Of a stretch of DNA of 32,000 bases, positions 3 to 16,074 are shown piece after piece (position 1 is the first letter of the stretch; every line of letters starts with the position of its first letter). The notes under the pieces are model-generated. The model had not been told where the DNA came from, made no database searches, and saw only the letters and a program-made list of their open reading frames with translations. A program made the translations under genes and the position numbers. This DNA is from an uncultured archaeon (GTDB lineage: Archaea; Asgardarchaeota; Thorarchaeia; Thorarchaeales; Thorarchaeaceae): contig CAYHAA010000008.1 in assembly GCA_964354495.1 (NCBI GenBank), forward strand, positions 30,001-62,000, written 5' to 3'.

Positions 3-3000
3 AACATAGGTGAAAACGCATCTGGAATGGTCGTCACAGCTGTCTATGACTACGACTCCACTCCCTATGATGGCACACTCACCCTCAACAATACAGTATT
101 CACCTATGCTGTCGTGGGCAGACAGGGGTACACAGCCGCGAGTGCAGCTGGTAATGACGCCTATGGGATCACCGTCATACGCGTCAACGACCAGACGTGG
201 TGTATATGGGACCAGGTCGTGGTCGTTTCCTATTCCTCAGGTGACTCACGTATCAATGTGGGCGCATCCAGTTCGTGCCATGTCATACTGCATTATGACT
301 ATGACGAAGCAATCGTGGTTGATGGCACTGTAACTGTCAATGGTGTTGGTGCGACCTATTCAGGTTCGAATGGAGTGTGGGACTTCAGTGAGATCAAGGT
401 AGCAGTCCAGCTCTTTACTTATGACAGTGTTCTAGCGTCAGGTAATACGTATGGCATAGATACGACTGACCAGAATGGGCGGAGTCTCGGCCAGATCTGG
501 GACAGGGCGCAAGTGCAGTCATATACTGTGACGGATTCTCGCGTTAACGTGGGTGATAACGTAAACATTGACGTGATCTTGCGCTACGACTATGATGACT
601 CATTTGTGACTGATGGAAGTGTGACCATCAATGGTCTGGCAGCCACATATCAAGGGTTAGGGGTCTGGAGAGCTGTCGATTCTGAATCATCAGTTGTGTC
701 GAACACCTACAACTTGGTAGTGGTGTCAGGCAATTCTAACGGTATCTCTGTTGTAGATCAGAACAGCCAGTCGCAACAGGTCGTCTGGGACCGCATCATC
801 GTGAGAGGATTCACTGTCGTCGATGCAAGAGTCAACTTGAATGACATAGTCAACATTGATGTTGAACTCGAATACGAATACGACAGCACTGACCTTATGG
901 ATGGTTCCGTGAGTGTGAGCGGTGTTTCCGCCACCTATCAGGGACTTGGCATATGGCGAATAACAGTTGCAGAGGCCGCTGTGACTGGAAGCACATACAA
1001 CTCTGTTAGTTGCACAGGGAACGGCCAAGGGATCACTGCCGTATACCAGAACGGGCAGACCCAGCTTGTCGTGTGGGACCAGGTGGCCGTGAGAGGCTAT
1101 TCGGTTGCAGACAGCAGAGTGAATCTGGGCACCGGTGTCAACGTTGAAGTAGCGCTGGAATACGAGTACGATGACAGTCCCGTGACTGATGGTGCAGTCA
1201 CGATAAATGGATTGAGTGCAAGCCACATAGGATCTGGTGTCTGGCGAGTAACAGACACAGAGATCATTGTGATTTCCAACGTATACAACGCAGTGGTGTG
1301 CTCTGGCAATTCATATGGCATAACGAATGTGAACCAGAACGGGCAGATACAGGAGGTCATATGGGACCAAGTGACCGTGAGGGGCTATTCTGCCTCGGAT
1401 ACCCGTGATAATGTAGGGGACTCAATCATAGTCTACGTTGTGCTGGAATACGAGTACGACGACTCTGATGTGACCAATGGCATAGTCGTAGTAGATGGCG
1501 TTACATTCACCTACACGGGCTCTAATGGCCAGTGGTCCGCCACTAGGATTCAAGCCGCTGTCACCTCGGAAACCTATGATTCTGTGACAGTATCTGGAAA
1601 CACTCATGGAATCACTTCTGTGAACCAGAATGCGCAAGCTATCATAATCATATGGGACAGGGTTCAGGTCCAATCGTATCTTGTATCGGATCCCCGTGTC
1701 AATGTCGGCGATGGTGTGATCGTTGATGTGACACTCTACTATGACTTTGATAACTCACCACTGATTGATGGCACAGTGACCATCAACGGAATCCTTGCCG
1801 CGAATCAAGGGTCCGGCATCTGGAGAATCACCGACTCCGAGGTATCTGTGGGAGATAACACCTACAACAATGTTGCAGTATCCGGGAATACTTTAGGAAT
1901 TACTGTTGTTGACCAGAGTTCGCAGTCCACGACTATCATCTGGGACCGGATAATTGTGATTGCACTCTATTCGGACGATACCCGCATCAATGTTGGCACA
2001 GCATGTTCCGGTCATGTGGTTCTTCAATACACCTATGATAGCACATACGTAGTGAATGGGGCAATTACTGTAAACGGCGTAGTCGCAACGTATTCAGGTT
2101 CAAACGGTATCTGGAACTTTGCTGAGGCAAGAGGAGCAGTTCAGCTCTTTACATACAACAGTGTTGTAGCATCTGGAAACACCCATGGAATAACCTCCGT
2201 CAACCAGAACGGGCAGAGTGAGAGCCAGATATGGGACCAACTGAGAGTGATCAGTTATTCAGTCACTGATTCTCGGTGTGATGTAGGTTCTATTCAGAAT
2301 GTTACAGCGATAGTAGTGTACGAGTATGACTCCACCCTCTTTTCGGGTGCAAGAGGGACGGTGTACCTCAATGGTTCCGCCATGGTCTGGGATGGAGTTG
2401 CATATCGATGGAGCCAAGAGAGAACCTCCTCCGTGGTGGGACGCCTCGTGTTCGGTGTGTCGGCAATCACTGACACATATCATGGCATTAGTGTCTTTCA
2501 GACCACAGCCCGCCCCGCCATCATATGGGATGCGTTAACTATCAGTATCGCAATTGTAGACAATCGAATAAACATCAATCAAGTTGCCTCTATTCAGGCA
2601 AGTGCCACTTATGCCTATGATGGGACTAATTACGAGGGGTCCCTGACTCTCAACAACACTCAGTTCAGCTATCCAACTGCGCAGATACAGTGGTACACCG
2701 TATCGAGTGCCGCAGGCGATTTCATCTATGGCATCACAGTGATTGGCACCAATGATATTGAGTCATGCATCTGGGATAGCCTGACCATCCTGATAACGGG
2801 GCCAAGTGACCAGCGGATCAACATCTACACGAATGCATCAGGAATTACAGTGTCAGCCACGTACGATTATGATGGCACACTATACACTGGCACATTAGTA
2901 CTCAATAATAATGTCTTCCAATACAGTGTTGCGCAGAGGAAAGACTATACTGTCAGTGCGGCTCTAGGTAATGATGCATATGGAATAACTGCGATCTCAT

Positions 3001-6000
3001 CCAATGATGTGACTTTCTGTATATGGGACTCTCTGACAATCTACATCAGCAATCCCGTAGATCAACGGATTAACATCAACACGAATGCGTCCGGGATAGT
3101 AGTGTCCGCCATGTATGACTACGATTCGTCAACATTCGATGGTGTTCTTTTGTTGAATGATACCACATTCAACCACGTAATTGTGGGCAGATATGGATAT
3201 TCTGTGGCGTCCACGTCTGGAGGCATATATGGCATATCGGCCATTAGCACAAATGCTGAAACCTATTGTGTATTCGATAGGCTGATAGTCACCATCGGAG
3301 TTGACGACGCCACACCCTACAATGACCACCAGGCGAACTTCACATTGACTGTTGAGTTCGCTTATGATTCTACTCAATGCTCAACATACCAGGTCATGAT
3401 AAGTAGGAATGGAACTCACTGGAGGTCGTTCATAGATGCAAACAAGTCACTCTTCGTGGATACACATATCGATACTACGTATCAGTACACCAGTACTGCT
3501 GTCACGGCTGAGTCGCTATATGGAATCACTGCATTCACCACGAATACTCTGCAGGTCACATGGTCAATTGCACCGAATGAAATCCCAACAAACGACTCGG
3601 CGCCACAGATCACAAACGCAGACGATACTGACAATCTTTATGCAAGGTATCAGTTCTATATTGTGACCTCCAGCGTGACTGACCTAGATGGTTCTGCAGA
3701 CATCGATTTCGTTGACTTGTCCCTATATGATAACACAAGGTCACTCTTGGTATGGACCATTCGCTACACTGTCTTGACCGGTTCATTCTCCATCGCACAG
3801 GGCTCAGAGTATGTGGCCTTGGGAGGCTGGGCATCTGCATCAAGTCGGTCAACTGGATTTGATATAACTTGGGTCATTAAGATTGATTGGGACCACCCAG
3901 ATTTACTGAACATCGATGTCAGGCAGTACGTGACAGACGGTTCAGATAGCGACGAGGACTTCTATGAAGTCGACTGGGATACTGAGACACGACTCAACTA
4001 CGCTTCCGCCCCATCTCTCTCGGACCATCGGGGTGACATTTCAACTTCGAACTTGTGGGCAAGTTCCACACTCATTTACTATGGTTCCTCGAACCTCCAT
4101 CCTCTTGACAATGAGACCGATGTGTGGGTGATACACGATGTTTCCGGAGCGTGGTCTGCTGATGTTGACGGAAGCGGTCAATTCACAGTGACTAACATAG
4201 GCTCATCCAGCTTGGTAAGACTGAACCTCTACACGTTCAAGGTCGTGTCAGAAGGTGCAGGAGCCCGTGGTATAGACCTCTACTTCGCGACTTCACGCAC
4301 GGACACATTTGTCACGGACAGGATTGAGCTGTATGTCTCAGGAGTAGACGACTCGAGAATCAATGTCAATACACAGGGGCGTGTATACTGGAGTGCTCGC
4401 TACGACTACGATGACGTGGCAATCTCTTCAGGTCTGGTTGTATCACTAAATGGTTCTAAAGCCCTGTCATGGAACGGTTCTCATTGGACATATGCTGAGG
4501 TGCAAAGCTCAGTCAAGAGTGTGGGGTACGCTATAGCACTGGCATTCGATAGCATATATGGACTGAATTCATGGATTCAGACCGCTCCTGATGTTTCCAT
4601 TGTCTGGGACCGTATTGTCGTGCGTACTACGACAGCTAGTGATAGTAGGGTGGGTGTCAGCGAAGCTGTCGAGGTGAGGGTCACCCTCTGGCTGGAGTAT
4701 GACCACACATTCCTCGGTCTTGGGGACTCTGTTACCTTTAACGGTCTGAGCATGACATGGGACACTGCTAACTCGTGGTTTGAACTGAGCCGGAGTCAGT
4801 CAGAAGTAGGTCGATGGATATACTATGTGAACGCTTCAGCTCAGTCGGTTCATGGGATAACAGCGCTAAGTCTTGATGGACGCAGCGTCAATATCATCTG
4901 GGATAGAGTCGTGGTTTCTGCGATTTCAGTGAGCGATGGAAGGGTCAGCACTGGGAGTTCTGTGGAGATACGTGTCAGACTATGGCTGGAGTATGATCAG
5001 TCGAGTCTAGGATCGGGCGATGGTGTTACTCTGGATGGCGTCCTAATGGCATGGGACCCCGGCAGCTTTTGGTTCGAACTTGCAAGGACCCAGTCCTCCG
5101 TTGGCAAATGGTCCTACTTTGTCAATGCTTCGACGGAGACCACTTATGGCATCAGCGCTCTCAATCTCAACGGCATGGTCATCCAGTGTATTTGGGACCA
5201 AGTCCTGGTAACATCATATACTTCTGATGACCAACGTATCAATATCGGAACAGCTTGTTTGTGTCATGTCATGCTGCAGTTCAGCTACGATGGTACCTAC
5301 GTGACTAATGGCATAGTGGCTGTAAACGGTGTAACGGCCGTCTATTCCGGAGCCAGCGGAATCTGGGACTTTAGCGAACTGAGGACAAGTGTACAGTCAT
5401 CCACCTATAACACAGTGATTGCTTCTGGCAACACTCATGGTATCGACTCAGTCAACCAGAATGGTCAGTCTCTATATCAGGTCTGGGACAGAATCATTGT
5501 CGAATCCTATTCCGTCACAGATTCACGAGTCAATATGGGTGACATTGTGACAATCGAGATAGCTCTTATCTACGACTTCGACAACGCACCTATGGTAGAT
5601 GGCTCGGTAACAGTGAACACGATAGGGGCCACTCACGTAGGATCTGGACTATGGCAAATCTCCCATAGCGAGTCGAGTATTATCAGTCGCGTCTACAACA
5701 GTGTGACCGTCTCAGGCAATTCCTTTGGCATCTTACAGATCAGTCAGAATGGGCAATCACAGACTGTAGTATGGGACCAGATAACTGTCAGAGGATACTC
5801 GGTCACGGATGGTCGAGCAAATCTAAACGATGTCGTCTATATCTATGTCAATCTTGAGTATGAGTATGATGATACAGATGTGTTAGATGGTTTGGTGAGT
5901 ATCAATGGAGCTCCGGCGACGTACACTGGACTTGGCATTTGGAGGATTACCGCCTCGGAATCAATAGTCACATCCAATACTTATGATCTAGTAGTCTGTA

Positions 6001-8834
6001 CCGACAATCAATATGGAATAACAAGCGCAAACCAGAACCTTCAATCACAATTCGTTGTATGGGACAGAATCAGAGTCATTATGTACGAATCGGGCGACCC
6101 TAGGAACAACATCGGGTCGTATACCTGGATTAGAGTCACTCTCCACTATGAATTCGATGACTCGCCAGTGACAGACGGTACAGTCAGTGTCAATGGCTAT
6201 GGCTTTGCCCACCTTGAAGCGGGCATCTGGCAGCATAATCGGACTGAGTTGTCAGCCATTGGAAGACTCTTTGATTCTGTTGCCTGTGGAAACAATGAGT
6301 ATCTTATCACAGCGGTCAACCAGAACTCTCAATGGATGAACATCATATGGGACTCCATAGCTGTGAGCCTGACAATTCTGGACCACAGGATTGATGTTGG
6401 AGATAACGCTTCAATCTATATGACTGCTGTCTACGATTATGATGGAGCACTCTATGATGGGTTCCTTGTTCTCAATGATACAACATACATGCATGATGAA
6501 GTCGGTCGATGGTCGTACACAATCGCTACCGCTGCCGGTGACTCTTATGGCATTGATGTGATATCCGTCAATGATGAGGACTATGTCATTTGGGATCGAC
6601 TTCACGTGTTGCCGTATGCAGTTTCAGACGAACGCTGCGACGTAGGAACAACTCAATCCATCTATGTGACCGTAGAATATGAATACGACTCGACAATTTT
6701 CACAGGGTCGCTCGGAACCGTCTATTTAAACGGTACAAGCATGATTTGGAATCAGTCGCTCATGAACTGGTATCAGAACAGAGTATACATGGTAACCGGA
6801 CGATGGCTGTTCGGAGTAACGGGAATCACTGACGACCTTCATGAACTTACTGTGATAAACCATCAGGCCACCCCAGCTTCTATAATCTGGGATAAGATTG
6901 AAGTCTTGTTGAGTGCTGATGCGCTCATTGTCAATTGGCATACACGGGTGAACTTCACGCTCACTGCCACTAGGGACTATGATGGCAGTCGAGTTCAACT
7001 GCTCACAACTTCGGTGAACCGAAACGGATCGTTCCTTGTGATCGGCAATTTCTCTGATATGTGGGATGGCCCAGTTGATGTCATCTGGATCTACACCGTG
7101 ATTAGCGCGAACGATGATCAATATGGACTGCAATCTTTCAGTGCGAATCTCTTGACAGTCACATGGACTGAGCGTCCTGTGGTTGTCATTGACATGGCCT
7201 TCGCAAGTGATGTGGATGGAAGAACGAATATTGGTAGTGAAGTGACTGTCTTCTTCCACTGCAAATGGTCGACAAATGGAAGCACTCCTAGCATGGGGCT
7301 GATCCTCGTCAACATGACGCCCCATGGAATCAATGGCAGTGGCTGGGTCTATTTCACTTGGGCAAGTGCAAGTGTCATTCGCCTCGTCTGGAGCGTCACA
7401 GGAGTCGATGTGAATGGGATAACGCAATACGATCAGCGTGTCATATCGCCATCGATGATATGGGATAGTCTAAGAGTATCGCTCGTCATTGCTGATAACC
7501 GGATTAACGTTGGAGAGAACGCAACGATTTTGGTTTCAGCCATCTATGCCTTCGATGGCACTCCCTATGATGGAGTCATCACACTGAATAACACAGTCTA
7601 TCAGTACGGCACAGTAGGTCGTCGTGGGTACACCGCTTCAGTCGGCTCAGGTGGAATTCACGGCATCACAGTGATCGTATATAGTGATGAAGAATACATC
7701 ATCTGGGACTCACTTCGAGTATATGTCCTGAATAATAGTGTGCATATCAATGTCGGTCGAAATGCCTCTATCCAGGTCTATGCGCTCTATGACTATGATG
7801 GTAAGACGTATGACGGAGTGATAACTCTGAATGACACAGTGTACATCCTTTACTCTGTTGGAAGAAAGGGTTACACATGTGCGTCAGTCAGTGGTGACAC
7901 CTACAATATTACACGGATTCGGTTGAGTGGACGCATCTATGTCACTTGGGACTCAATCACAGTGAGAGTAATAGTTGATGACGACTACATCACCATTGGA
8001 ACCAATGCATCCATCTCGGTCCGTGGAACGTTTGACTACGACGGTTCACCATACACAGGAGTACTGAGGCTCAACGACACTACCTATCAGTATGACACTG
8101 TGGGCCGCAGAGCATACATGTGCACCTCAGCCACCCCACAAGGTCATGGTGTTACTCTCATCAGTAGCACCGATGTTGAGTATATCATCTGGGATCAGCT
8201 TGAGGTGTTTTGGAGCGAATCTCAGCGGATTCGTGCCGACCTTAGTCAACAAGTCGATGTTATGTTCCGCATACGAAGATCCTATGATGGCTCGCCGTTC
8301 ACAGATAGTGATGGAGAGATATATATCGATGGCGTAGAGGCTACGTTCCTCTCGACAGAGGGTTACTGGTATATCACTGTGACCTCAAGTGAGGTCAACA
8401 ATCATAGCTATAGTGTCACAGGGCACCTAGATCTGGTTGGGGGCATAGTGGCAATAGATGGGGCGACTGAGTTCACATGCACAACCACCTGGGATTTGAT
8501 TTACGTATCACGCGCAGGAGTTTGGGGCAGTGCCCCAGCTTTTGACCCAGAAATTGATTCACCAGCGGGACGGGTACTGCAATGCGAGTTGGACTGGGCA
8601 GTCACAGTCTACTTCTACCTGAATTATATGTCAGATGGTGCAGCACTCTCGGATCCCGACACAACTGTGATTGTCAATGGACAAAACGCAGTCTTTGTCG
8701 TGGAGAGGCAGAGATGGGAACTCATCGTAACATCACAAGGGCTTGGAACTAAGCAATACATGATAGAGGAGATCATGGACTCGTATGGTCTGACCCAAGT
8801 GGATCACCGAGGGTTATATCCGATTATCAATTGG
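3..8834 (+). repeat. Tandem array of about 29 diverged protein-domain repeats (mostly 81-84 aa and 96-100 aa classes), probably Ig-like beta-sandwiches
   Basis: Terminal W(D) anchor codons (F at 3273) at 207, 498, 786, 1074, 1362, 1653, 1941, 2232, 2526, 2772, 3024, 3273, 3561, then after the module 4605, 4899, 5193, 5484, 5772, 6060, 6348, 6591, 6888, 7164, 7461, 7704, 7947, 8190, 8490, 8832. Consensus D-x-R-I/V-N-V-G ... Y-D/E-Y-D ... G-x-V-T-x-N ... Y/H-G-I ... I-W-D. The Ig-like fold is inferred from the alternating beta pattern and repeat length. Confidence 0.85.
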
Positions 8835-9257
8835 TTCCCTGTGCGCACTGCAATGGGAATCGCGACGTTTGGAGTGATAGGACTAATCGGAGTCGGAGCC
8901 GCACTATTCATCAGGCGCACAAGGAGGAGAGTTGCGGCTCTTGAGAAGGCATTAGGTCCTGAACGAGTGATGTCAATGGAGGAGGCAGAACTCCCCGTGA
9001 AGGTACGGGAGGAGATTCTCGCAAGTCTTGATTGGCTGAGAGAACTTCAAGAACAGATTCCTGCAATGGACACGAAGGTACTCCTCTCAGTGAAAGAAGA
9101 GCTGCGAAATGCGTATGGTTTGTATGTCAAGGCATTCGGCGAAGCTATATATGAGGAATATCTTACCGACCCTGGACTGAAGCTAAAGCAGGCTCTAGTC
9201 AAGCGGATTGAAGTTCTGGTTCAGATTGTGAATAGGGAGTTGAACGCAAGAGCATAA
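3..9257 (+). CDS. Giant repeat-rich cell-surface/adhesin-like type I membrane protein, 5'-truncated (>3080 aa)
   Basis: The frame is open from nt 3 (NIGENASG-MVVTAVYDYD, which matches the internal repeat consensus RINVGENAT...YDYD), so ATG27 is not the true start. About 29 beta-rich repeats, a ~245-aa non-repeat module (3585-4319), one TM helix (MGIATFGVIGLIGVGAALFI, 8853-8912) followed by RRTRRR, and a 114-aa helical tail. Confidence 0.9.
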   Translation, partial: NIGENASGMVVTAVYDYDSTPYDGTLTLNNTVFTYAVVGRQGYTAASAAGNDAYGITVIRVNDQTWCIWDQVVVVSYSSGDSRINVGASSSCHVILHYDYDEAIVVDGTVTVNGVGATYSGSNGVWDFSEIKVAVQLFTYDSVLASGNTYGIDTTDQNGRSLGQIWDRAQVQSYTVTDSRVNVGDNVNIDVILRYDYDDSFVTDGSVTINGLAATYQGLGVWRAVDSESSVVSNTYNLVVVSGNSNGISVVDQNSQSQQVVWDRIIVRGFTVVDARVNLNDIVNIDVELEYEYDSTDLMDGSVSVSGVSATYQGLGIWRITVAEAAVTGSTYNSVSCTGNGQGITAVYQNGQTQLVVWDQVAVRGYSVADSRVNLGTGVNVEVALEYEYDDSPVTDGAVTINGLSASHIGSGVWRVTDTEIIVISNVYNAVVCSGNSYGITNVNQNGQIQEVIWDQVTVRGYSASDTRDNVGDSIIVYVVLEYEYDDSDVTNGIVVVDGVTFTYTGSNGQWSATRIQAAVTSETYDSVTVSGNTHGITSVNQNAQAIIIIWDRVQVQSYLVSDPRVNVGDGVIVDVTLYYDFDNSPLIDGTVTINGILAANQGSGIWRITDSEVSVGDNTYNNVAVSGNTLGITVVDQSSQSTTIIWDRIIVIALYSDDTRINVGTACSGHVVLQYTYDSTYVVNGAITVNGVVATYSGSNGIWNFAEARGAVQLFTYNSVVASGNTHGITSVNQNGQSESQIWDQLRVISYSVTDSRCDVGSIQNVTAIVVYEYDSTLFSGARGTVYLNGSAMVWDGVAYRWSQERTSSVVGRLVFGVSAITDTYHGISVFQTTARPAIIWDALTISIAIVDNRININQVASIQASATYAYDGTNYEGSLTLNNTQFSYPTAQIQWYTVSSAAGDFIYGITVIGTNDIESCIWDSLTILITGPSDQRINIYTNASGITVSATYDYDGTLYTGTLVLNNNVFQYSVAQRKDYTVSAALGNDAYGITAISSNDVTFCIWDSLTIYISNPVDQRININTNASGIVVSAMYDYDSSTFDGVLLLNDTTFNHVIVGRYGYSVASTSGGIYGISAISTNAETYCVFDRLIVTIGVDDATPYNDHQANFTLTVEFAYDSTQCSTYQVMISRNGTHWRSFIDANKSLFVDTHIDTTYQYTSTAVTAESLYGITAFTTNTLQVTWSIAPNEIPTNDSAPQITNADDTDNLYARYQFYIVTSSVTDLDGSADIDFVDLSLYDNTRSLLVWTIRYTVLTGSFSIAQGSEYVALGGWASASSRSTGFDITWVIKIDWDHPDLLNIDVRQYVTDGSDSDEDFYEVDWDTETRLNYASAPSLSDHRGDISTSNLWASSTLIYYGSSNLHPLDNETDVWVIHDVSGAWSADVDGSGQFTVTNIGSSSLVRLNLYTFKVVSEGAGARGIDLYFATSRTDTFVTDRIELYVSGVDDSRINVNTQGRVYWSARYDYDDVAISSGLVVSLNGSKALSWNGSHWTYAEVQSSVKSVGYAIALAFDSIYGLNSWIQTAPDVSIVWDRIVVRTTTASDSRVGVSEAVEVRVTLWLEYDHTFLGLGDSVTFNGLSMTWDTANSWFELSRSQSEVGRWIYYVNASAQSVHGITALSLDGRSVNIIWDRVVVSAISVSDGRVSTGSSVEIRVRLWLEYDQSSLGSGDGVTLDGVLMAWDPGSFWFELARTQSSVGKWSYFVNASTETTYGISALNLNGMVIQCIWDQVLVTSYTSDDQRINIGTACLCHVMLQFSYDGTYVTNGIVAVNGVTAVYSGASGIWDFSELRTSVQSSTYNTVIASGNTHGIDSVNQNGQSLYQVWDRIIVESYSVTDSRVNMGDIVTIEIALIYDFDNAPMVDGSVTVNTIGATHVGSGLWQISHSESSIISRVYNSVTVSGNSFGILQISQNGQSQTVVWDQITVRGYSVTDGRANLNDVVYIYVNLEYEYDDTDVLDGLVSINGAPATYTGLGIWRITASESIVTSNTYDLVVCTDNQYGITSANQNLQSQFVVWDRIRVIMYESGDPRNNIGSYTWIRVTLHYEFDDSPVTDGTVSVNGYGFAHLEAGIWQHNRTELSAIGRLFDSVACGNNEYLITAVNQNSQWMNIIWDSIAVSLTILDHRIDVGDNASIYMTAVYDYDGALYDGFLVLNDTTYMHDEVGRWSYTIATAAGDSYGIDVISVNDEDYVIWDRLHVLPYAVSDERCDVGTTQSIYVTVEYEYDSTIFTGSLGTVYLNGTSMIWNQSLMNWYQNRVYMVTGRWLFGVTGITDDLHELTVINHQATPASIIWDKIEVLLSADALIVNWHTRVNFTLTATRDYDGSRVQLLTTSVNRNGSFLVIGNFSDMWDGPVDVIWIYTVISANDDQYGLQSFSANLLTVTWTERPVVVIDMAFASDVDGRTNIGSEVTVFFHCKWSTNGSTPSMGLILVNMTPHGINGSGWVYFTWASASVIRLVWSVTGVDVNGITQYDQRVISPSMIWDSLRVSLVIADNRINVGENATILVSAIYAFDGTPYDGVITLNNTVYQYGTVGRRGYTASVGSGGIHGITVIVYSDEEYIIWDSLRVYVLNNSVHINVGRNASIQVYALYDYDGKTYDGVITLNDTVYILYSVGRKGYTCASVSGDTYNITRIRLSGRIYVTWDSITVRVIVDDDYITIGTNASISVRGTFDYDGSPYTGVLRLNDTTYQYDTVGRRAYMCTSATPQGHGVTLISSTDVEYIIWDQLEVFWSESQRIRADLSQQVDVMFRIRRSYDGSPFTDSDGEIYIDGVEATFLSTEGYWYITVTSSEVNNHSYSVTGHLDLVGGIVAIDGATEFTCTTTWDLIYVSRAGVWGSAPAFDPEIDSPAGRVLQCELDWAVTVYFYLNYMSDGAALSDPDTTVIVNGQNAVFVVERQRWELIVTSQGLGTKQYMIEEIMDSYGLTQVDHRGLYPIINWFPVRTAMGIATFGVIGLIGVGAALFIRRTRRRVAALEKALGPERVMSMEEAELPVKVREEILASLDWLRELQEQIPAMDTKVLLSVKEELRNAYGLYVKAFGEAIYEEYLTDPGLKLKQALVKRIEVLVQIVNRELNARA

Positions 9258-9351: not shown

Positions 9352-10824
9352 TCAAAGATACACTTTGAAGATTCTACGCAACATCTCGTCAGCGGCAAAG
9401 CGATACTCTTCAGTGATTACCTCTCCAAAATGCATTTCAGGAAGTAAGCGAAGAGCCTCTCTTAGGAACTTCTGCAGGGACTGACGCGCCCTGAAATCCT
9501 CACAGCTAGCAAAGAGAGCTCCCATATACGCCTCCCTATGTTCCATCATGACCGTGCTACCTTCATAGGAGATTGACCTTATCATACCAGGTCTATCCAT
9601 GACTTCGGATGATAGGTGAGATAATGCTGACAGAAAGCCGTATACAAGATCACCCTTTTCATCTCGATGCCCATCGAAGCTATAGGTGTAAAGAGGGAGT
9701 CCAGATGCCAGATTCATGATGATCAAACGACTTAGCTCGACGGAGATCTCAAGTGACTCTCGAGAAACCTTAAGCTTCAACGACTCGTCGAAGATTGCTG
9801 GTATTACCTCGAGCGCGTCATTCACCACTGAGTCACCATTACTATCCTCGTCTTGGTGTTTCTTTCTGCTTGCTCTAGCAGAAAGCCGCCGTACTTCCTG
9901 CAGCTCATGTTCTATGAGCGCTTCTATTGACTCATTGCCTGTACTCCTAGCCATGGCTCTAGCCTGATTCAAATCGTCACGAGCCCCGTTTACATCTCTT
10001 GCAATCTTTCGAAGGATGGCTCTGAGGAGCAACGCTTCAGTCCAGAGCTCATCAAGCTCTAGCTCTTTGGAAATTTGAATCAGATTCTCCGAGTAGTGAA
10101 GAGAAGAATAGTAGTCTCTCTCGCTGCCATGGATCTGATAACGTTTTAGACAGATAGATGCCAATTGAATCTGTGACTTCACGACATAGTCGAATAGGTC
10201 CATTTCTACAGCAAGTTCTAGACTCTGTCTGAGATACCGAATTGCGTCATCTAGGTTCATGCTCTCATGACATAGAAGTCCCCTCAAGTAGTACAGACCA
10301 ACAGTTCCACCAACATAGGCTTCTGCCTCTCCCTTGTCTGACTTTGATACATCGGTTTCGTCCCTGTGTCGCGCAGGCATGACTTTGACATCAATATCCT
10401 CATCTGGCTCATCTGACTCGACCTTTGTATCCAGATCTGCATCACTGGACTCCTCCAGTCCTCCAAGGACATCAGAAGGCATGTATTTGTCACTCTCTGT
10501 AGTATCGAGCTTTTCTGCCTCCGGCTCCTCGAGTTGCCCATCAAACCAGATCTCATCTTCATCCGATGTTGACAATATGTCAATGCTTGTTTTGCTTCTG
10601 TCCCTATTCGGTTCTGAACTACGCAGAGTGCTGAGAGCCTCGTCGGTCCTGTCCTCAGGACCCGCCTTCACGGCCCTGGTTCCGGACTCATCAGGCTTTG
10701 CGTTATCTCGTGTAGAGGGTTTCCTTTCACCTTCCACTTCCTCTTTTTGTGCTGGATCTGCTTCGGGCTCATCATCAGAAACACTACTGTCCGCATGACT
10801 TTTGATGATTGGCATCCGAGGCAC
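9352..10824 (-). CDS. Acidic disordered N-terminus + TPR-like helical repeats + C-terminal longin/roadblock-like domain (Asgard eukaryotic-signature-type protein)
   Basis: About 165 aa D/E/S-rich low-complexity N-terminus. TPR-like helices (GLYYLRGLLCHESMNLDDAIRYLRQSLELAVE; ALLLRAILRKIARDVNGARDDLNQARAMA). The C-terminal LIIMNLASGLPLYTYSF...DLVYGFLSALSHLSSEV...IRSISYEGSTVMME matches the pattern I recall for Asgard longin-like domains. SD-like GAGGTG upstream of the ATG. Confidence 0.7.
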   Translation of the reverse strand: MPRMPIIKSHADSSVSDDEPEADPAQKEEVEGERKPSTRDNAKPDESGTRAVKAGPEDRTDEALSTLRSSEPNRDRSKTSIDILSTSDEDEIWFDGQLEEPEAEKLDTTESDKYMPSDVLGGLEESSDADLDTKVESDEPDEDIDVKVMPARHRDETDVSKSDKGEAEAYVGGTVGLYYLRGLLCHESMNLDDAIRYLRQSLELAVEMDLFDYVVKSQIQLASICLKRYQIHGSERDYYSSLHYSENLIQISKELELDELWTEALLLRAILRKIARDVNGARDDLNQARAMARSTGNESIEALIEHELQEVRRLSARASRKKHQDEDSNGDSVVNDALEVIPAIFDESLKLKVSRESLEISVELSRLIIMNLASGLPLYTYSFDGHRDEKGDLVYGFLSALSHLSSEVMDRPGMIRSISYEGSTVMMEHREAYMGALFASCEDFRARQSLQKFLREALRLLPEMHFGEVITEEYRFAADEMLRRIFKVYL

Positions 10825-11124: not shown

Positions 11125-14100
11125 TCATCTCGTAGGCAATACAGTCTTGGGCTCGTAGCTACTGGGACCTTCTCTTGCCTGCGTCTTATTTCGAGCCTTC
11201 CGCTTTGCTCTGCGTCGTCGTAATGATCCAAGTGCTACTACACCACCTAGCACTATCATGAAGCCCAGGACAAATCCGTGCGGAGCCTCCTCAAGGAGAA
11301 AGAGAGAAGCGGAGTAGAACTCATGAGCGGCTGTGTCAACCACTGCAGCCACAAACAGAACAACATTCATCAGACCATCAAAGAGAGTGCTGGCAAAGTA
11401 GTATATCTCAGCGATTGCAGTCGCAGGAGAAATACTGGACCCATCTTCAAAGATATTCAGCGCATCTTCCGCACTGAGAACCAAGGCGGATGCATGGCGG
11501 AGAGTAACGAGGCCATGCCCATTCTCAACGACTGAAACGATGGAGTAGGTATTATCGTTCTCAGTATCTCTCACATCCGAGAATGAATCAGAAGTCACAA
11601 CCTGCCAGGGTTCTCCATTCTTGTGTATTTCCGCCGAGTAGTCGGTCGCAGGAGCCCCATCATATGCATATGTTAGACTGAGTGCGAACACTATGGTAGC
11701 AGTGGTGCATGCTGCGCGGATGGGCGTGATTGCTGCATCAATAGCATCTGCAATATAGTTGGCACTCTTCGCGAGCCCCAAAAGGTTTGTTCCTGCTACA
11801 GCGTCACCTTTGTTGATAATACGAACACTGTAGGTGTCCGCGCCTACCGAATCATCAGCATAGACATATAGAGTGAATTCTCCCGAAGATTCGTCATAGT
11901 TCGCTGCTATCCAAGGACTTGATGCAACTTGAGGTGAAACAATGAAGATGTCCACCTCAGATGCAGGGGGATGAAGTGTACTGCCAAAGAAGGTGACGGT
12001 TCCAGTTGCTTGAATCTCTCCATTAATGTCACCCCGATTGAGAGTGCCAAAGCCATCAGAGAGAGCAAGTCCGGTTGGCATATCAAGCCTAGTTTCGACA
12101 CTCCAACCTGTTGAATAGTAGTCCCTATCAGAGTAGAGCTCATCGTCAACAACCACGCACTTGAAGTTCACATTTACAAGATCGGGATGATTCCAGTTGA
12201 TAGTCAAGAAGAATGTTATACTGCTCGTGTTCCCAGAAATGAAGCGACTGCTATCGACTGTATTCAGTGCGATTAGGTCCCCCGAATCAGATTGCTCAGA
12301 GAACAAGTCACGGTCTGCATCATAATGGGCAGTCCAGTACTCTCTAATATGGTCATCCGAAACAAGCGACAGTTCCATGTATGTGATGTCCTCACAACCA
12401 TCAGAATCAGACACGAATGTCGTTATTTGGTAGTCCTTTGTCCTTGCATAGAGGTGTGAGGAGTCGTCGAGATTGGAGATTGTAGGTGTCTGCACATTTG
12501 TGGGTGCGCTCCCTGGTCCCCGCGGTAGACTGCCGAATTCTATCGAGTTGATTTTCCCCGCATTTGATAGCCGAAACTTGAAACCAGACATTGTTCCAGC
12601 ATACAGATGATATAGCATCTCTTCATCCCAGGCTGACCATGAGTCAAGGTGATATGTCAGATCCAAATTGAAATGGCTGAAATTAGACTGGTCGATTTGA
12701 GCCCATTGATACTCCTCTGTGTTCAGGTTCATGGCGGGTTCATATTCCAGTTCAATCCAGTTCACGAAATCCTCTGAACTTACGAGGGCGCCATCAGAGT
12801 CGACATAGAGGTAGGCATCTGTGTGTCCACCTGAATATGTGATACTGAAATTCGAAATTGAGTACATCTTGAGAAAGTCGATCCTGATGGTTTCTGATGA
12901 TCTCACAATGAATCTAAAATGCATGATAGTCGTGTCTAGGTCCCGAAGATAGTAACGTCCGTCTACTGCGTTCTTGCTATTGACAAGAGTACCATAGCTG
13001 GAACCGTCATAAGATTGCAGTGTGTAGATGTCATTGGCATCTTCCGGGTGAAATCTGACACACAGAAATGGGTAGGCATCTGCACTCATGGGAGTTGCAG
13101 TGCTTGTAGTGTCCACAGCGATGTCAAAAGTTGACCCATCAGTATCTGACGTCAGCGAAATGTAATCTCCATCACTTGATATCGAACCCCCACCGCTGGC
13201 TGTTATGCCGAATGTTGTGCTTCCATCATGTTGCCAACCCGTTTGACTTGTGATTCGGAGATAATCGAATTGGAAGCCGGTTGTAGTGCTTGTAGCAATG
13301 CAAGAGATTCCAATGGACTCTATATTGTGTGATGCCCGAAATCCTGCCCTGTAGGTTCCCCACGAAGTCGAGGGATATGTTGAATCTATTATCAGTGTGA
13401 GCATGCCACCCGCATCATCTTCCTCGTATGATCTCAGCTTGAAGTAGGATGTTCCAGCCACGTTTGCTCGAAATCTCAGCTCAATGTAGTAGTACCCAGA
13501 AGGCAAGCTAGCAGAGTTAGTGATCAGATTGTCATAGGAGGCATCGCCCGGTACAGTGACTGTGCATACATCACCATTGGTGACAGGCAGGCTGCCAGTT
13601 GAAGTCCAGTCGTTGACCACTGCAAAGGACTCAGCAAAACCAGAACCAGCTGTTTCACTGTCAGTGTATAGCAGCACATTGTCCGGGGCAGTTTCTGAGA
13701 ATCGTGTAATGCTATGGCTACTAGTATCAAAAACACAGAGGGATTCAACTGAGCCCCAGACGCCATGCACAGGAGAAGGATAAGTAGGGACTGCAAAGCT
13801 CTTGCTTGAACTGATTGCTGACGCTCGACCATAGTATACGTAGATTTTCTGATCTTGTTCGCTCAGATTTCCCGGGCACTTCACCCAGAATCTAGCACCG
13901 GTAATCTCATGTCTTTGGACGATGCCTTCTGCACCCCATGCATAACCTTTGGTGTGTTTGCCACCAGCAGGTATGTGCTCGGTGAAGACAATCTGTATCT
14001 CTGGATTATTTGAGCCAGTCCATTTGGCTCCGACAGGTACAGTAGCATATGTCAGGTAGTTGCCACCAGAGTCTTGGGACCTGTAGCAGTATTCAACAAA

Positions 14101-16074
14101 GGCCCATGAACTCCCGTCCCACGTCCAATGTGTTATGTCGCTACCAGTTGTGACGAATGCGGAGATGTTTGACGATGAGTAGATGATAATGTCACTAGCA
14201 CCGTTTGTTGTCGTTGTACTGATATTCTTCATACCTGACCATTCGGACCCTGTCCAATAGACCATCGTGCTTGTTCTTGCGCCGGTGCCAGCTCGGCTCA
14301 CGACATTGAACACAAGATAAGGTGTGGGGCTGTCGCGGGGGACCTTCATGTTCGGGCCAGTGACATGGCATCCTCCGGTATAAAGTGCTAACATGTTAGG
14401 CCACTCATCCACCGTTACAGTCGATCCTTGACTATGACCAGTGACATTGTAGACCAGACCTGCATCGATACTGAAGTAGCCATAATAGGCATTTGTATAG
14501 ACCTGCCCATATGGAGCGCTCGAGTTGTACAGTGCCCAAGTGAAGTGAATCTTATTGTGATCTAAGTTGTCTAATCCACCAACGCACTTGTAGACAAAGC
14601 ACCCGGGAGTGACTGTGACAAGCACTTTAGGGCTACTCCATGTCTGGCCATTGTCTGAAGACGGCATATATTCCAGGTTGCAGATACCATCTCCGGGGAA
14701 TCTACGGTACCATAAGTGGACGATGTCATTCTCGCTATCATAGGCAATATTCGGGTACGTGCTTGACCCCGTGCCCAAGCTTGGCAACATCTCGAACCTG
14801 TCTATTCGCTCAGGTTGAGCAGACTTTGCATGCATGAACGGGTCGTTGTGAGCGCCATAGACAACATGTATGTAGCCCTCGTTGTCAACCCACAGTGCAG
14901 GAGCTCCGTGGTCATCATTGCTGAGCTGACTTTCTCCGACATAGTATCTTGGTGACCAAGTCTTGTTCTCATGGTCATAGTAGGTTATGTAAGCATAAAA
15001 TCCATCGCCCTGATATGTACAATATGTTCGGTCGTTGTAATAGAACACGCTAGGATAACAGTAGTAGTACCATCCGAATACCGCACCATCGTCTACAAAG
15101 TAGTCTTTGCCAATCGGGTCTCTGTAGTAATCTTCTAGCCAATAATCGATTGGTTCATTATTCTCATCAGTGAACCGTACGTCATCCAAGCCGGGCCTGG
15201 CATTTTGGTCAAGAAAGACCGTATTCGCCATATCAATTCCGGAGCCTAGGTAAACATCGATTGGCACTGCATAATTCATGCCTGTGTTTGGCGTCTGAAG
15301 GATGTCATGCGACTTTCTATAGGACCACTCGTTCAGCCACGACACTGGTTGGGGAGAAGGTTCAGTATATGATATATTCAGGAAAGCCACGGGATTTGAA
15401 GAGTCAAGAGATTGGTAGTCATTCCATCGGTGCATTCCTGTGCCAGAGTAGCTCGGAAAGGTGAACCTGATGCCGATGTGGTAACCACTCTGCCAATTGG
15501 CAAGGTCGACTTGAGCCTGTATCAGTTCCGTGATATCTGCCGATCCTATTTGATCGTCAAGACCGTTCCAGGAATAGTAACTCACAGGCTTAGCGGCAAT
15601 GTTTGGGATTGTATCATCAGCTTCTAAAGGTCCAACGTTCGTTTCATCAATCCGCTGTATCATGCACTGCCCTACACGAGCGTCCTCGTCCTCATATGCG
15701 CTGAAGTATGCAGAGCTTATGGTTGCGCCTTTAGGTATGTTGAGCATGAATCGGAATTGTCCTGTATATTGCACACCTGTCTCATAGTGCACATAGACAT
15801 GGTCATTTGATAACCAGTGTTCCCAGCTGGCTACATTCCAGCTCCACCAGTCGTCATCAGAATCAGCCAAGACTTGTGTGTTGTATACTACGGAGGCTAT
15901 GTGTTCAATCCGAAGAGGATCGTGTGTGAGGTCTTCGTCCTCTGTGCTTGTTGTGGGGATTAGTTCAACTTGGCCTAGAGTAATTGGAGAGTTCATCATC
16001 AGCATAAGAATGCTCATGCTAACAACTAGGAGCGTGCGTCCTGTGCTGAGCGTTCCACCGCTCTGTTTCTTCAT
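11125..16074 (-). CDS. Large secreted, C-terminally membrane-anchored modular surface protein (DNRLRE/CBM96-like, split DUF2341-like, BNR_4-like propeller, beta-sandwiches, shared module)
   Basis: Signal peptide (MKKQ...RTLLVVSMSILMLMM). FRFMLNIPKGATISSAY...DITELIQ (DNRLRE-like). WSYRKSHDI...DDVRFTDENNEPIDYWLE and RFWVKCP...IYVYYG (DUF2341 halves). NDDHGAPALWVDNEGYIHVVYGAH (BNR_4-like). C-terminal TM GFVLGFMIVLGGVVALGSL followed by RRRRAKRK. SD AAGGAG at 16084-16089. Confidence 0.85.
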   Translation of the reverse strand: MKKQSGGTLSTGRTLLVVSMSILMLMMNSPITLGQVELIPTTSTEDEDLTHDPLRIEHIASVVYNTQVLADSDDDWWSWNVASWEHWLSNDHVYVHYETGVQYTGQFRFMLNIPKGATISSAYFSAYEDEDARVGQCMIQRIDETNVGPLEADDTIPNIAAKPVSYYSWNGLDDQIGSADITELIQAQVDLANWQSGYHIGIRFTFPSYSGTGMHRWNDYQSLDSSNPVAFLNISYTEPSPQPVSWLNEWSYRKSHDILQTPNTGMNYAVPIDVYLGSGIDMANTVFLDQNARPGLDDVRFTDENNEPIDYWLEDYYRDPIGKDYFVDDGAVFGWYYYCYPSVFYYNDRTYCTYQGDGFYAYITYYDHENKTWSPRYYVGESQLSNDDHGAPALWVDNEGYIHVVYGAHNDPFMHAKSAQPERIDRFEMLPSLGTGSSTYPNIAYDSENDIVHLWYRRFPGDGICNLEYMPSSDNGQTWSSPKVLVTVTPGCFVYKCVGGLDNLDHNKIHFTWALYNSSAPYGQVYTNAYYGYFSIDAGLVYNVTGHSQGSTVTVDEWPNMLALYTGGCHVTGPNMKVPRDSPTPYLVFNVVSRAGTGARTSTMVYWTGSEWSGMKNISTTTTNGASDIIIYSSSNISAFVTTGSDITHWTWDGSSWAFVEYCYRSQDSGGNYLTYATVPVGAKWTGSNNPEIQIVFTEHIPAGGKHTKGYAWGAEGIVQRHEITGARFWVKCPGNLSEQDQKIYVYYGRASAISSSKSFAVPTYPSPVHGVWGSVESLCVFDTSSHSITRFSETAPDNVLLYTDSETAGSGFAESFAVVNDWTSTGSLPVTNGDVCTVTVPGDASYDNLITNSASLPSGYYYIELRFRANVAGTSYFKLRSYEEDDAGGMLTLIIDSTYPSTSWGTYRAGFRASHNIESIGISCIATSTTTGFQFDYLRITSQTGWQHDGSTTFGITASGGGSISSDGDYISLTSDTDGSTFDIAVDTTSTATPMSADAYPFLCVRFHPEDANDIYTLQSYDGSSYGTLVNSKNAVDGRYYLRDLDTTIMHFRFIVRSSETIRIDFLKMYSISNFSITYSGGHTDAYLYVDSDGALVSSEDFVNWIELEYEPAMNLNTEEYQWAQIDQSNFSHFNLDLTYHLDSWSAWDEEMLYHLYAGTMSGFKFRLSNAGKINSIEFGSLPRGPGSAPTNVQTPTISNLDDSSHLYARTKDYQITTFVSDSDGCEDITYMELSLVSDDHIREYWTAHYDADRDLFSEQSDSGDLIALNTVDSSRFISGNTSSITFFLTINWNHPDLVNVNFKCVVVDDELYSDRDYYSTGWSVETRLDMPTGLALSDGFGTLNRGDINGEIQATGTVTFFGSTLHPPASEVDIFIVSPQVASSPWIAANYDESSGEFTLYVYADDSVGADTYSVRIINKGDAVAGTNLLGLAKSANYIADAIDAAITPIRAACTTATIVFALSLTYAYDGAPATDYSAEIHKNGEPWQVVTSDSFSDVRDTENDNTYSIVSVVENGHGLVTLRHASALVLSAEDALNIFEDGSSISPATAIAEIYYFASTLFDGLMNVVLFVAAVVDTAAHEFYSASLFLLEEAPHGFVLGFMIVLGGVVALGSLRRRRAKRKARNKTQAREGPSSYEPKTVLPTR

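Follow-up and report, generated by a model that had tools for sequence, protein, structure and literature searches.

Those Asgard archaea that have been brought into culture live closely associated with partner organisms, and the question raised by the locus described here is how such partners are held and whether contact is relayed to the cell interior. The locus lies in a 32,000-nucleotide stretch (the window; C8:30001-62000) of contig CAYHAA010000008.1 from an uncultured Thorarchaeaceae archaeon (GCA_964354495.1; genome of 3.3 Mb in 51 contigs, completeness 97.7%). It contains a gene for a giant surface protein built of immunoglobulin (Ig)-like repeats and, convergent with it, a gene for a cytosolic protein termed here the adaptor candidate. 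In the reading we favor (probability about 0.6), the giant protein is a variable type I surface fiber whose tail docks a dedicated cytosolic TPR/Roadblock-like adaptor, the two forming an adhesin or contact sensor with its adaptor. The computed evidence comprises the architecture, the predicted folds, the conservation of the tail, the co-occurrence, adjacency, and co-divergence of tail and adaptor, and a binding prediction that passes its controls.

Giant Ig-like repeat adhesins are already known; unprecedented here is a conserved cytosolic tail with a dedicated partner on such a protein. No account of the family, of its tail domain, or of the pairing of tail and adaptor turned up in literature searches on giant adhesins of Asgard archaea and Thorarchaeota and on TPR-Roadblock proteins. 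The locus thereby offers a concrete candidate: a 114-residue tail, a 340-residue cytosolic partner, a predicted interface with named residues, and cognate and noncognate pairs within one genome.

Architecture of the Giant Protein

Within the window, the giant gene occupies positions 3-9257 of the forward strand as a single uninterrupted frame of 3,084 codons that continues past the 5′ edge, as an earlier note made from the sequence alone had reported. The size given there (>3080 residues) was that of the window part only. Recovery of the upstream contig, which the note had proposed, showed that the frame opens at C8:25257 and that its earliest start codon, a GTG at C8:25281 (4,722 nt upstream), yields a protein of 4,658 residues with a signal peptide; the same start agrees with the one called for a 94%-identical orthologue. 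The full gene (C8:25281-39257, L009:5281-19257, forward strand) is an intact frame of 13,977 nt. The window holds its 3′ two-thirds, encoding residues 1575-4658 and the stop codon, while the signal peptide, the head, and the first 11 repeats lie upstream.

From the N-terminus, the protein consists of the signal peptide (residues 1-24, a KRPR n-region followed by a hydrophobic h-region), a head of ∼320 residues, two 255-residue modules, 37-40 repeats, a transmembrane (TM) helix, the sequence RRTRRR, and a tail of 114 residues that begins with it. A hydropathy scan detects two hydrophobic stretches only, starting at residue 6 and at residues 4524-4527. The second is the single TM helix (positions 8850-8912, forward strand; residues 4524-4544), directly followed by RRTRRR (8913-8930, forward strand), so that the one TM helix and positive-inside motif described in the note are upheld by hydropathy and sequence alike. 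With its N-terminal signal peptide, C-proximal TM helix, and positively charged cytosolic side, the gene product of this Thor-group Asgard archaeon is a type I membrane protein of giant size. The note had taken the source for a probable Asgard archaeon, and the nearest named homologues indeed belong to Candidatus Thorarchaeota, with single ones labeled Hermod-, Prometh-, and Sifarchaeia. An NCBIfam scan of the whole protein returned no family and no PGF-CTERM or other anchor signal, and Pfam identified no toxin or enzyme domain at either end.

An assembly artifact or pseudogene was ruled out: the 13,977-nt frame is intact, and orthologues of the same layout occur on independent assemblies. The DNA identity among repeats is merely 66-75%, and collapse of repeats during assembly is therefore unlikely.

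Ectodomain and Family Distribution

Hidden Markov models (HMMs) anchored on a recurrent I-W-D motif, one built per unit length, count 39-40 repeat units between residues 604 and 4511, comprising an A type of 83 residues and a B type of 96-97 residues; a stricter count gives 37 units. The A and B types cross-match at E values of 1e-5 to 1e-11 and therefore constitute one family. Twenty-nine of the HMM-found units start inside or straddle the window, in agreement with the ∼29 repeats of several subtypes noticed earlier. They form a first block of 13 Ig-like units of both types, the last degenerate (positions 3-3548, forward strand; residues 1575-2756), and a second block of 16 more, several of them degenerate near the membrane (4317-8813, forward strand; residues 3013-4511). 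Between the blocks, a gap in the HMM matches marks the second copy of a nonrepeat module of 255 residues, module X (3549-4316, forward strand; residues 2757-3012), which interrupts the array; the first copy, recognized by sequence similarity, lies upstream of the window at residues ∼340-603.

Over all 4,658 residues, Pfam reports no Big_*, Cadherin, or Ig family even at E ≤ 1. The sole family matched is DUF7738 (PF24880), with 67.8 bits and E = 1.3e-18 over the whole protein (cut-off 24.6). Taken singly, repeats reach 21-24 bits and do not exceed the 24.6-bit gathering cut-off, so membership is distant; the same family is precomputed on many homologues. The earlier note had allowed that the repeats might belong to a well-described Pfam family, whereas DUF7738 is uncharacterized, and a literature search found no paper naming it.

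The fold of the repeats was predicted by AlphaFold2 on an A-B pair, using an alignment (A2) of 56 consecutive unit pairs from the giant protein and its paralogue. The model is all β and linkerless, with a predicted local distance difference test (pLDDT) score of 96.2 and a predicted template modeling (pTM) score of 0.85. The best Foldseek matches are the surface-layer (S-layer) protein EA1 (E = 2e-4), FdeC, Sap, LigA, SbsC, intimin, and SiiE; S-layer proteins EA1, Sap, SbsC, and SlpX all rank among the top matches, and the cadherin structures (Cadherin-23, desmoglein, and protocadherin) appear mid-list as generic matches at E ∼ 1.4e-2. This ranking argues for generic Ig-like domains with no specific tie to cadherins. 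The repeats, which the note had called β-sandwich-like, are thus predicted to be Ig-like β-sandwiches closest to bacterial adhesin and S-layer domains.

The ectodomain (positions 3-8849 of the window plus the upstream part) carries a net charge of −345, with 0.3% Lys and 8.8% Asp. Its 57 N-glycosylation sequons are enriched in A units (on average 1.9 per A unit versus 0.4 per B unit). Conserved acidic motifs of the ectodomain (WD, DxRxN, and YDYD) may form interdomain metal sites. The head matched no Pfam family, and residues 25-610 retrieved nothing from PDB sequences at E ≤ 10. A head subdomain of ∼105 residues (LDLECAWT...IDAVLIHTW; residues ∼245-345, L009:6010-6315), likewise without a Pfam family, recurs at 41-49% identity in LamG, DUF2341, and BNR_4 surface proteins of Bathy-, Thor-, Heimdall-, and Woesearchaeota, in up to three tandem copies.

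Thirty-two homologues of 2,640-7,254 residues were retrieved, all labeled hypothetical and, where named, mostly from Candidatus Thorarchaeota. They contain 4 to 61 repeat units. Wherever a C-terminal TM segment is detected, it consists of one helix only, with 106-456 residues of cytosolic tail beyond it; no such segment was detected in six of the 32, several of which are labeled partial. Such long cytosolic tails throughout a family are unusual among archaeal surface proteins. The search of archaeal genomes with a repeat HMM that the note had suggested was carried out in a sample of 301 genomes of the phylum: the repeat profile is positive in 46 of 76 other genomes of the same family, in 8 of 21 of a second family, and in 1 of 4 of a third, with no match in the ∼200 remaining genomes. 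The nearest relatives (G012:C55 and P0004) are 92-94% identical at both termini, and they measure 6,612-6,620 residues with 56 units, compared with 4,658 residues and 37 units here; a gap of ∼2,000 residues between near-identical relatives means that repeat number changes fast, with ∼20 repeats gained or lost. Even if tail and adaptor do not bind, these giant type I surface proteins with long cytosolic tails form a family specific to one lineage.

The most serious competing explanation concerns this ectodomain. The giant protein may form a coat resembling an S-layer or mucin, as a structural part of the envelope or glycocalyx, with the tail and its partner serving biogenesis, membrane retention, or quality control only. 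S-layer proteins head the Foldseek list, the ectodomain is strongly acidic and rich in sequons, and a surface-glycan gene island adjoins the giant/adaptor locus together with another type I surface protein; moreover, halomucin and similar giant archaeal proteins have been linked to protection and cell-shape roles (PMC11573180). A core envelope protein would nevertheless not be expected to be this patchy (repeats in 46 and the tail in 16 of the 76 other family genomes), to differ by ∼2,000 residues of repeats between near-identical relatives, or to occur as several paralogues with different tails per genome. Patchiness, repeat variation, and multiple paralogues are typical of variable adhesins rather than of a lattice protein, and we consider the coat unlikely.

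A Conserved Cytosolic Tail

The tail occupies positions 8913-9254 of the forward strand. AlphaFold2 models the TM helix followed by a three-helix bundle (8997-9251, forward strand; residues 4573-4657) with pLDDT 86-91 over the bundle, in keeping with the helical intracellular region of 114 residues described in the note. An unstructured and unconserved tail, which the note had kept in view, is not what was found: in alignment A1, ten orthologous tails share 22 invariant columns at 34-92% identity. Within the genus, 7 of 27 genomes carry an orthologue detected by a tail profile, and so do 16 of 76 others of the family; a further 224 genomes of the phylum gave no match that was significant. In a search of 1.84 billion representative proteins, the profile yielded 28 matches (clusters), 20 of them at E ≤ 1e-10. 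All strong matches but one have the domain at their very C-terminal end, and the larger tail-matching proteins all carry the same repeats as the giant protein. Fold searches with the tail returned generic helical bundles and no specific structural relative.

The tail domain also occurs apart from giant proteins. Mini-proteins of 140-151 residues consist of a TM helix and the tail domain alone (L024:1162-1596 and L034:1489-1911, both on the reverse strand, and P0036, P0041, and P0048), with two tail domains in tandem in P0036. Their gene neighbors encode a polysaccharide deacetylase, endonuclease dU, and an HD protein, all unrelated to the adaptor; the mini-proteins could be decoys, remnants, or regulators. 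Two metagenomic proteins, P0052 and P0057, depart further from the standard layout. One, of 793 residues, has a tail-like domain at residues 237-349 and a PMT_2 (mannosyltransferase) match below threshold, and the other, of 199 residues, has the C-terminal half of the tail domain after a weak response-regulator receiver domain.

The Adaptor Candidate

The convergent gene (P0003; positions 9352-10824, reverse strand) ends 94 nt from the stop codon of the giant gene and encodes a cytosolic protein of 490 residues with no TM helix. Three parts can be distinguished: an acidic N-terminal extension (residues 1-150), a TPR-like helical half (∼165-310), and a C-terminal half (340-490) without a Pfam family. 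TPR_12/TPR_1 matches are weak in all 12 adaptor orthologues. A class of 680-residue paralogues scores ∼150 bits against the adaptor profile, and these are strong TPR proteins (TPR_12, 84.5 bits). Searching the adaptor profile against the PDB gave weak PPR/TPR matches only, and a word-based homologue search retrieved close relatives only, none with Pfam domains.

For the C-terminal half, the adaptor alignment was enriched with 20 paralogues and compared with 11 Roadblock/LC7 proteins of the same genome. In hhalign, residues 363-440 (positions 9505-9738, reverse strand) align over 73 columns with P = 0.0086, in register with the ββαβββ core of Roadblock/LC7, versus P = 0.16-0.61 over 1-17 columns in eight control comparisons. 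A protein-language-model search (Atlas) listed a Roadblock/LAMTOR2 cluster with a score of 0.84, to be taken as no more than a lead, and Pfam reports no Roadblock/LC7 (PF03259) match in this half. A Roadblock-like fold is likely but unproven on these alignments.

Pairing of Tail and Adaptor

An adaptor orthologue adjoins the tail-bearing gene in 12 of 12 complete loci, which span three genera. Across 86 genomes of the family, the adaptor profile separates strong orthologues (≥384 bits), present in 17 genomes, from the widespread ∼150-bit class of 680-residue TPR proteins. The tail is present in 18 genomes and the strong adaptor in 17; 15 genomes have both, and in all 15 the genes lie side by side, as read from the loci examined or from profile-search coordinates. 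Four of the five mismatches fall at contig ends, and the fifth genome has a mini-tail gene alone. In the genome studied here (G000), there is one tail and one adaptor, and a second giant protein with another class of tail has no adaptor. Two types of tail, each matched by a type of adaptor, have arisen by parallel divergence, and genome G004 carries one cognate pair of each. Relative to G000, one pair shows 76% identity in the tail and 81% in the adaptor, and the other shows 35% and 44%, respectively.

Complex prediction from an adaptor alignment (A3) and the cytosolic part of the tail alignment (A1) gave a median interface score (ipSAE) of 0.70, compared with 0.00 for each of three controls. 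In calibration, 58 of 80 solved complexes attained this mark, as did 2 of 110 mismatched pairs; these counts are only roughly valid for predictions made, as here, from our own alignments. At least 73% of contacts agree between runs, with a partner pLDDT of at least 73. In the predicted interface, the first TPR-like helix of the adaptor (residues 167-187; positions 10264-10326, reverse strand), which overlaps the weak TPR match, packs against the first two helices of the tail bundle (residues 4575-4618; positions 9003-9134, forward strand). Among the invariant residues at this interface are W4585, L4586, Y4615, and A4618 on the tail side and A169, G173, Y179, and R181 on the adaptor side. The prediction supports binding of the tail to the adaptor, short of demonstrating it.

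A second explanation would reduce this link to inherited gene order. All the loci come from one family, and synteny may be by descent; the tail could then be a self-association or stop-transfer element, for instance a bundle that oligomerizes the fiber, and the binding prediction a false positive of the kind seen for two of the 110 mismatched pairs. Interface residues show no clear enrichment in conservation (tail, 0.72 vs 0.65; adaptor, 0.83 vs 0.77), which fits such an explanation, as do the mini-tail genes that lack an adaptor neighbor. It fits poorly with the fact that the gene content upstream of the giant gene is not preserved in another locus but the downstream pair is, beside frames ranging from 263 to 5,171 residues (several cut by contig ends). 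Two diverged cognate pairs within one genome (G004) and a score of 0.00 in all three controls also argue against it, and we regard inherited order as rather improbable.

Proposed Mechanism

In the favored reading of a tail-docked adaptor, a Sec-type signal peptide would export ∼4,500 residues of the giant protein. A distal head, holding a subdomain common to many archaeal surface proteins, would be carried on a stalk of ∼40 linkerless Ig-like domains, very acidic, nearly free of Lys, and bearing N-glycosylation sequons, with an extended length that we estimate at ∼150 nm (∼4 nm per domain). One helix would anchor the fiber in the membrane, and on the cytosolic side the three-helix bundle of the tail would dock the first TPR-like helix of the adaptor. 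The ectodomain would attach to a surface or to a partner cell, and the tail-adaptor contact would couple the fiber to cytoplasmic machinery, possibly via the Roadblock-like half of the adaptor. Elsewhere, the Roadblock fold dimerizes and regulates small GTPases. We infer the adhesion role of the giant protein from its architecture and from bacterial analogues. Any signaling, in whichever direction, is likewise inferred, and coupling to a GTPase or the cytoskeleton would follow by analogy with Roadblock domains elsewhere.

Several results weigh against this reading. The head has no known ligand-binding family by Pfam or PDB sequence search, and a structural envelope role fits the S-layer-matching ectodomain equally well. 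In the adaptor, the TPR match of 16.9 bits is below the Pfam cut-off of 27.8, the Roadblock assignment is marginal, and the locus contains no GTPase gene. To these are added the missing enrichment at the interface, the occurrence of TM-plus-tail mini-genes without an adjoining adaptor, and the fact that closely related genomes can inherit shared gene order and co-divergence even where these serve no function.

A stronger version of the proposal, which we advance only tentatively, is that one Asgard lineage evolved a true transmembrane adhesion-receptor system independently of eukaryotes. Here, a contact-sensing Ig-like fiber would recruit, through its tail, an α-solenoid-plus-Roadblock adaptor that switches a small GTPase or the cytoskeleton, a functional analogue of cadherin-catenin or integrin-talin coupling, found in a prokaryote whose way of life depends on contact between cells. 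Should tail and adaptor bind, with a GTPase engaged by the Roadblock-like half, outside-to-inside coupling by single-pass adhesion proteins would have arisen in archaea with no homology to animal systems.

Comparison with Known Systems

The closest structural counterparts are the giant Ig-like adhesins of bacteria (FdeC, the Big domains of intimin and invasin, SiiE, LigA, and RTX adhesins). The predicted repeat pair superposes on solved Ig-like adhesin domains and thus has the predicted Ig-like/Big β-sandwich fold, while the giant protein lacks a Big_* Pfam match. Bacterial giant adhesins are held in the outer membrane or the cell wall, or are retained via the secretion channel. Unlike them, the giant protein is type I, with a predicted folded cytosolic tail and a dedicated predicted cytosolic partner.

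The logic shared with cadherin-catenin, and with integrin-talin, is that of a repeat ectodomain, a single TM helix, and a conserved tail bound by an α-solenoid (ARM repeats in catenins and, as predicted, TPR-like here). No homology to the cadherin-catenin system was detected in the repeats, the tail, or the adaptor. Cadherin tails are disordered until bound, in contrast to the predicted folded three-helix bundle of the giant protein. The earlier note had compared the protein with eukaryotic cadherin and Ig-superfamily receptors. As to layout, the comparison stands, given the type I topology, the sizeable cytosolic domain, and the partner predicted to bind it; a dedicated partner for a conserved tail is the very point of a receptor layout, here as a prediction. 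A specific link to cadherins or the Ig superfamily found no backing in Pfam or Foldseek. True kinship with these receptors is highly improbable despite the similar layout and the generic cadherin matches, since Pfam shows neither a Cadherin nor an Ig match at E ≤ 1, bacterial adhesins and S-layer domains precede cadherins in the Foldseek list, fold searches with the tail gave only generic bundles, and the family is confined to one Asgard family with weak matches in two others.

Mycoplasma cytadhesins (P1 and P140/P110) are type I surface adhesins of wall-less cells whose C-terminal cytoplasmic tails are joined to internal structures; the layout is therefore not exclusively eukaryotic. Their ectodomains are unrelated and are not Ig-repeat arrays, they belong to another domain of life, and they are not known to have a TPR/Roadblock partner.

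Among archaeal proteins, S-layer glycoproteins, halomucin, and LamG-headed giants (PMC11573180) are likewise secreted, acidic, and glycosylated, properties predicted for the giant protein from its sequence and sequons. In contrast to them, it has no PGF-CTERM, is much longer than a lattice protein, and belongs to a family with tails of 106-456 residues. With Roadblock/LC7-MglB GTPase regulators and the Asgard roadblock proteins treated in PMC10933270, the similarity lies in the C-terminal half of the adaptor, which aligns with the Roadblock core at marginal statistics. No description of a Roadblock domain fused to a TPR-like half that docks the tail of a surface protein was found in the literature searches.

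Paralogues and Neighboring Genes

At least two classes of tail occur in the family: the helical class of the giant protein and a class with a long linker, acidic and rich in Pro and Glu, that terminates in a conserved helical motif of ∼45 residues. The paralogue in the same genome (G000:C10:67727-77797, reverse strand; L036) is an open frame of 3,357 residues with the same head, 23-24 repeats, and a tail of the second class. In this tail of ∼250 residues, the helical motif (...LPxDxKxTxSPxELKRLSKKELISLLESF), sometimes duplicated, is common to many homologues. Pfam returned nothing for this motif or for the long class-2 and class-3 tails. The giant proteins with class-2 tails have thiolase and acyl-CoA dehydrogenase genes as neighbors, and no candidate partner was seen at these loci.

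Upstream of the adaptor gene, on the same strand and 300 nt away, lies a gene of 1,649 codons (positions 11125-16074, reverse strand) that could be co-transcribed with it. Its product is a type I surface protein with a signal peptide, a BNR_4 propeller, DUF2341, a TM helix at residue 1597, and a short basic tail.

The 680-residue TPR paralogues share the C-terminal domain of the adaptor and were followed at six loci (L068-L073; genomes G013, G001, G074, G248, G103, and G040). All six also encode a type I membrane protein of ∼1,060 residues, a subtilase in the one locus scanned. Two more genes, for proteins of ∼560 and ∼570 residues, are found at five of the six, the first encoding an EF-Tu-like GTPase where scanned. 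Between these two, four of the six loci contain a pair of genes for proteins of ∼470-520 residues, identified as TldD/PmbA where scanned.

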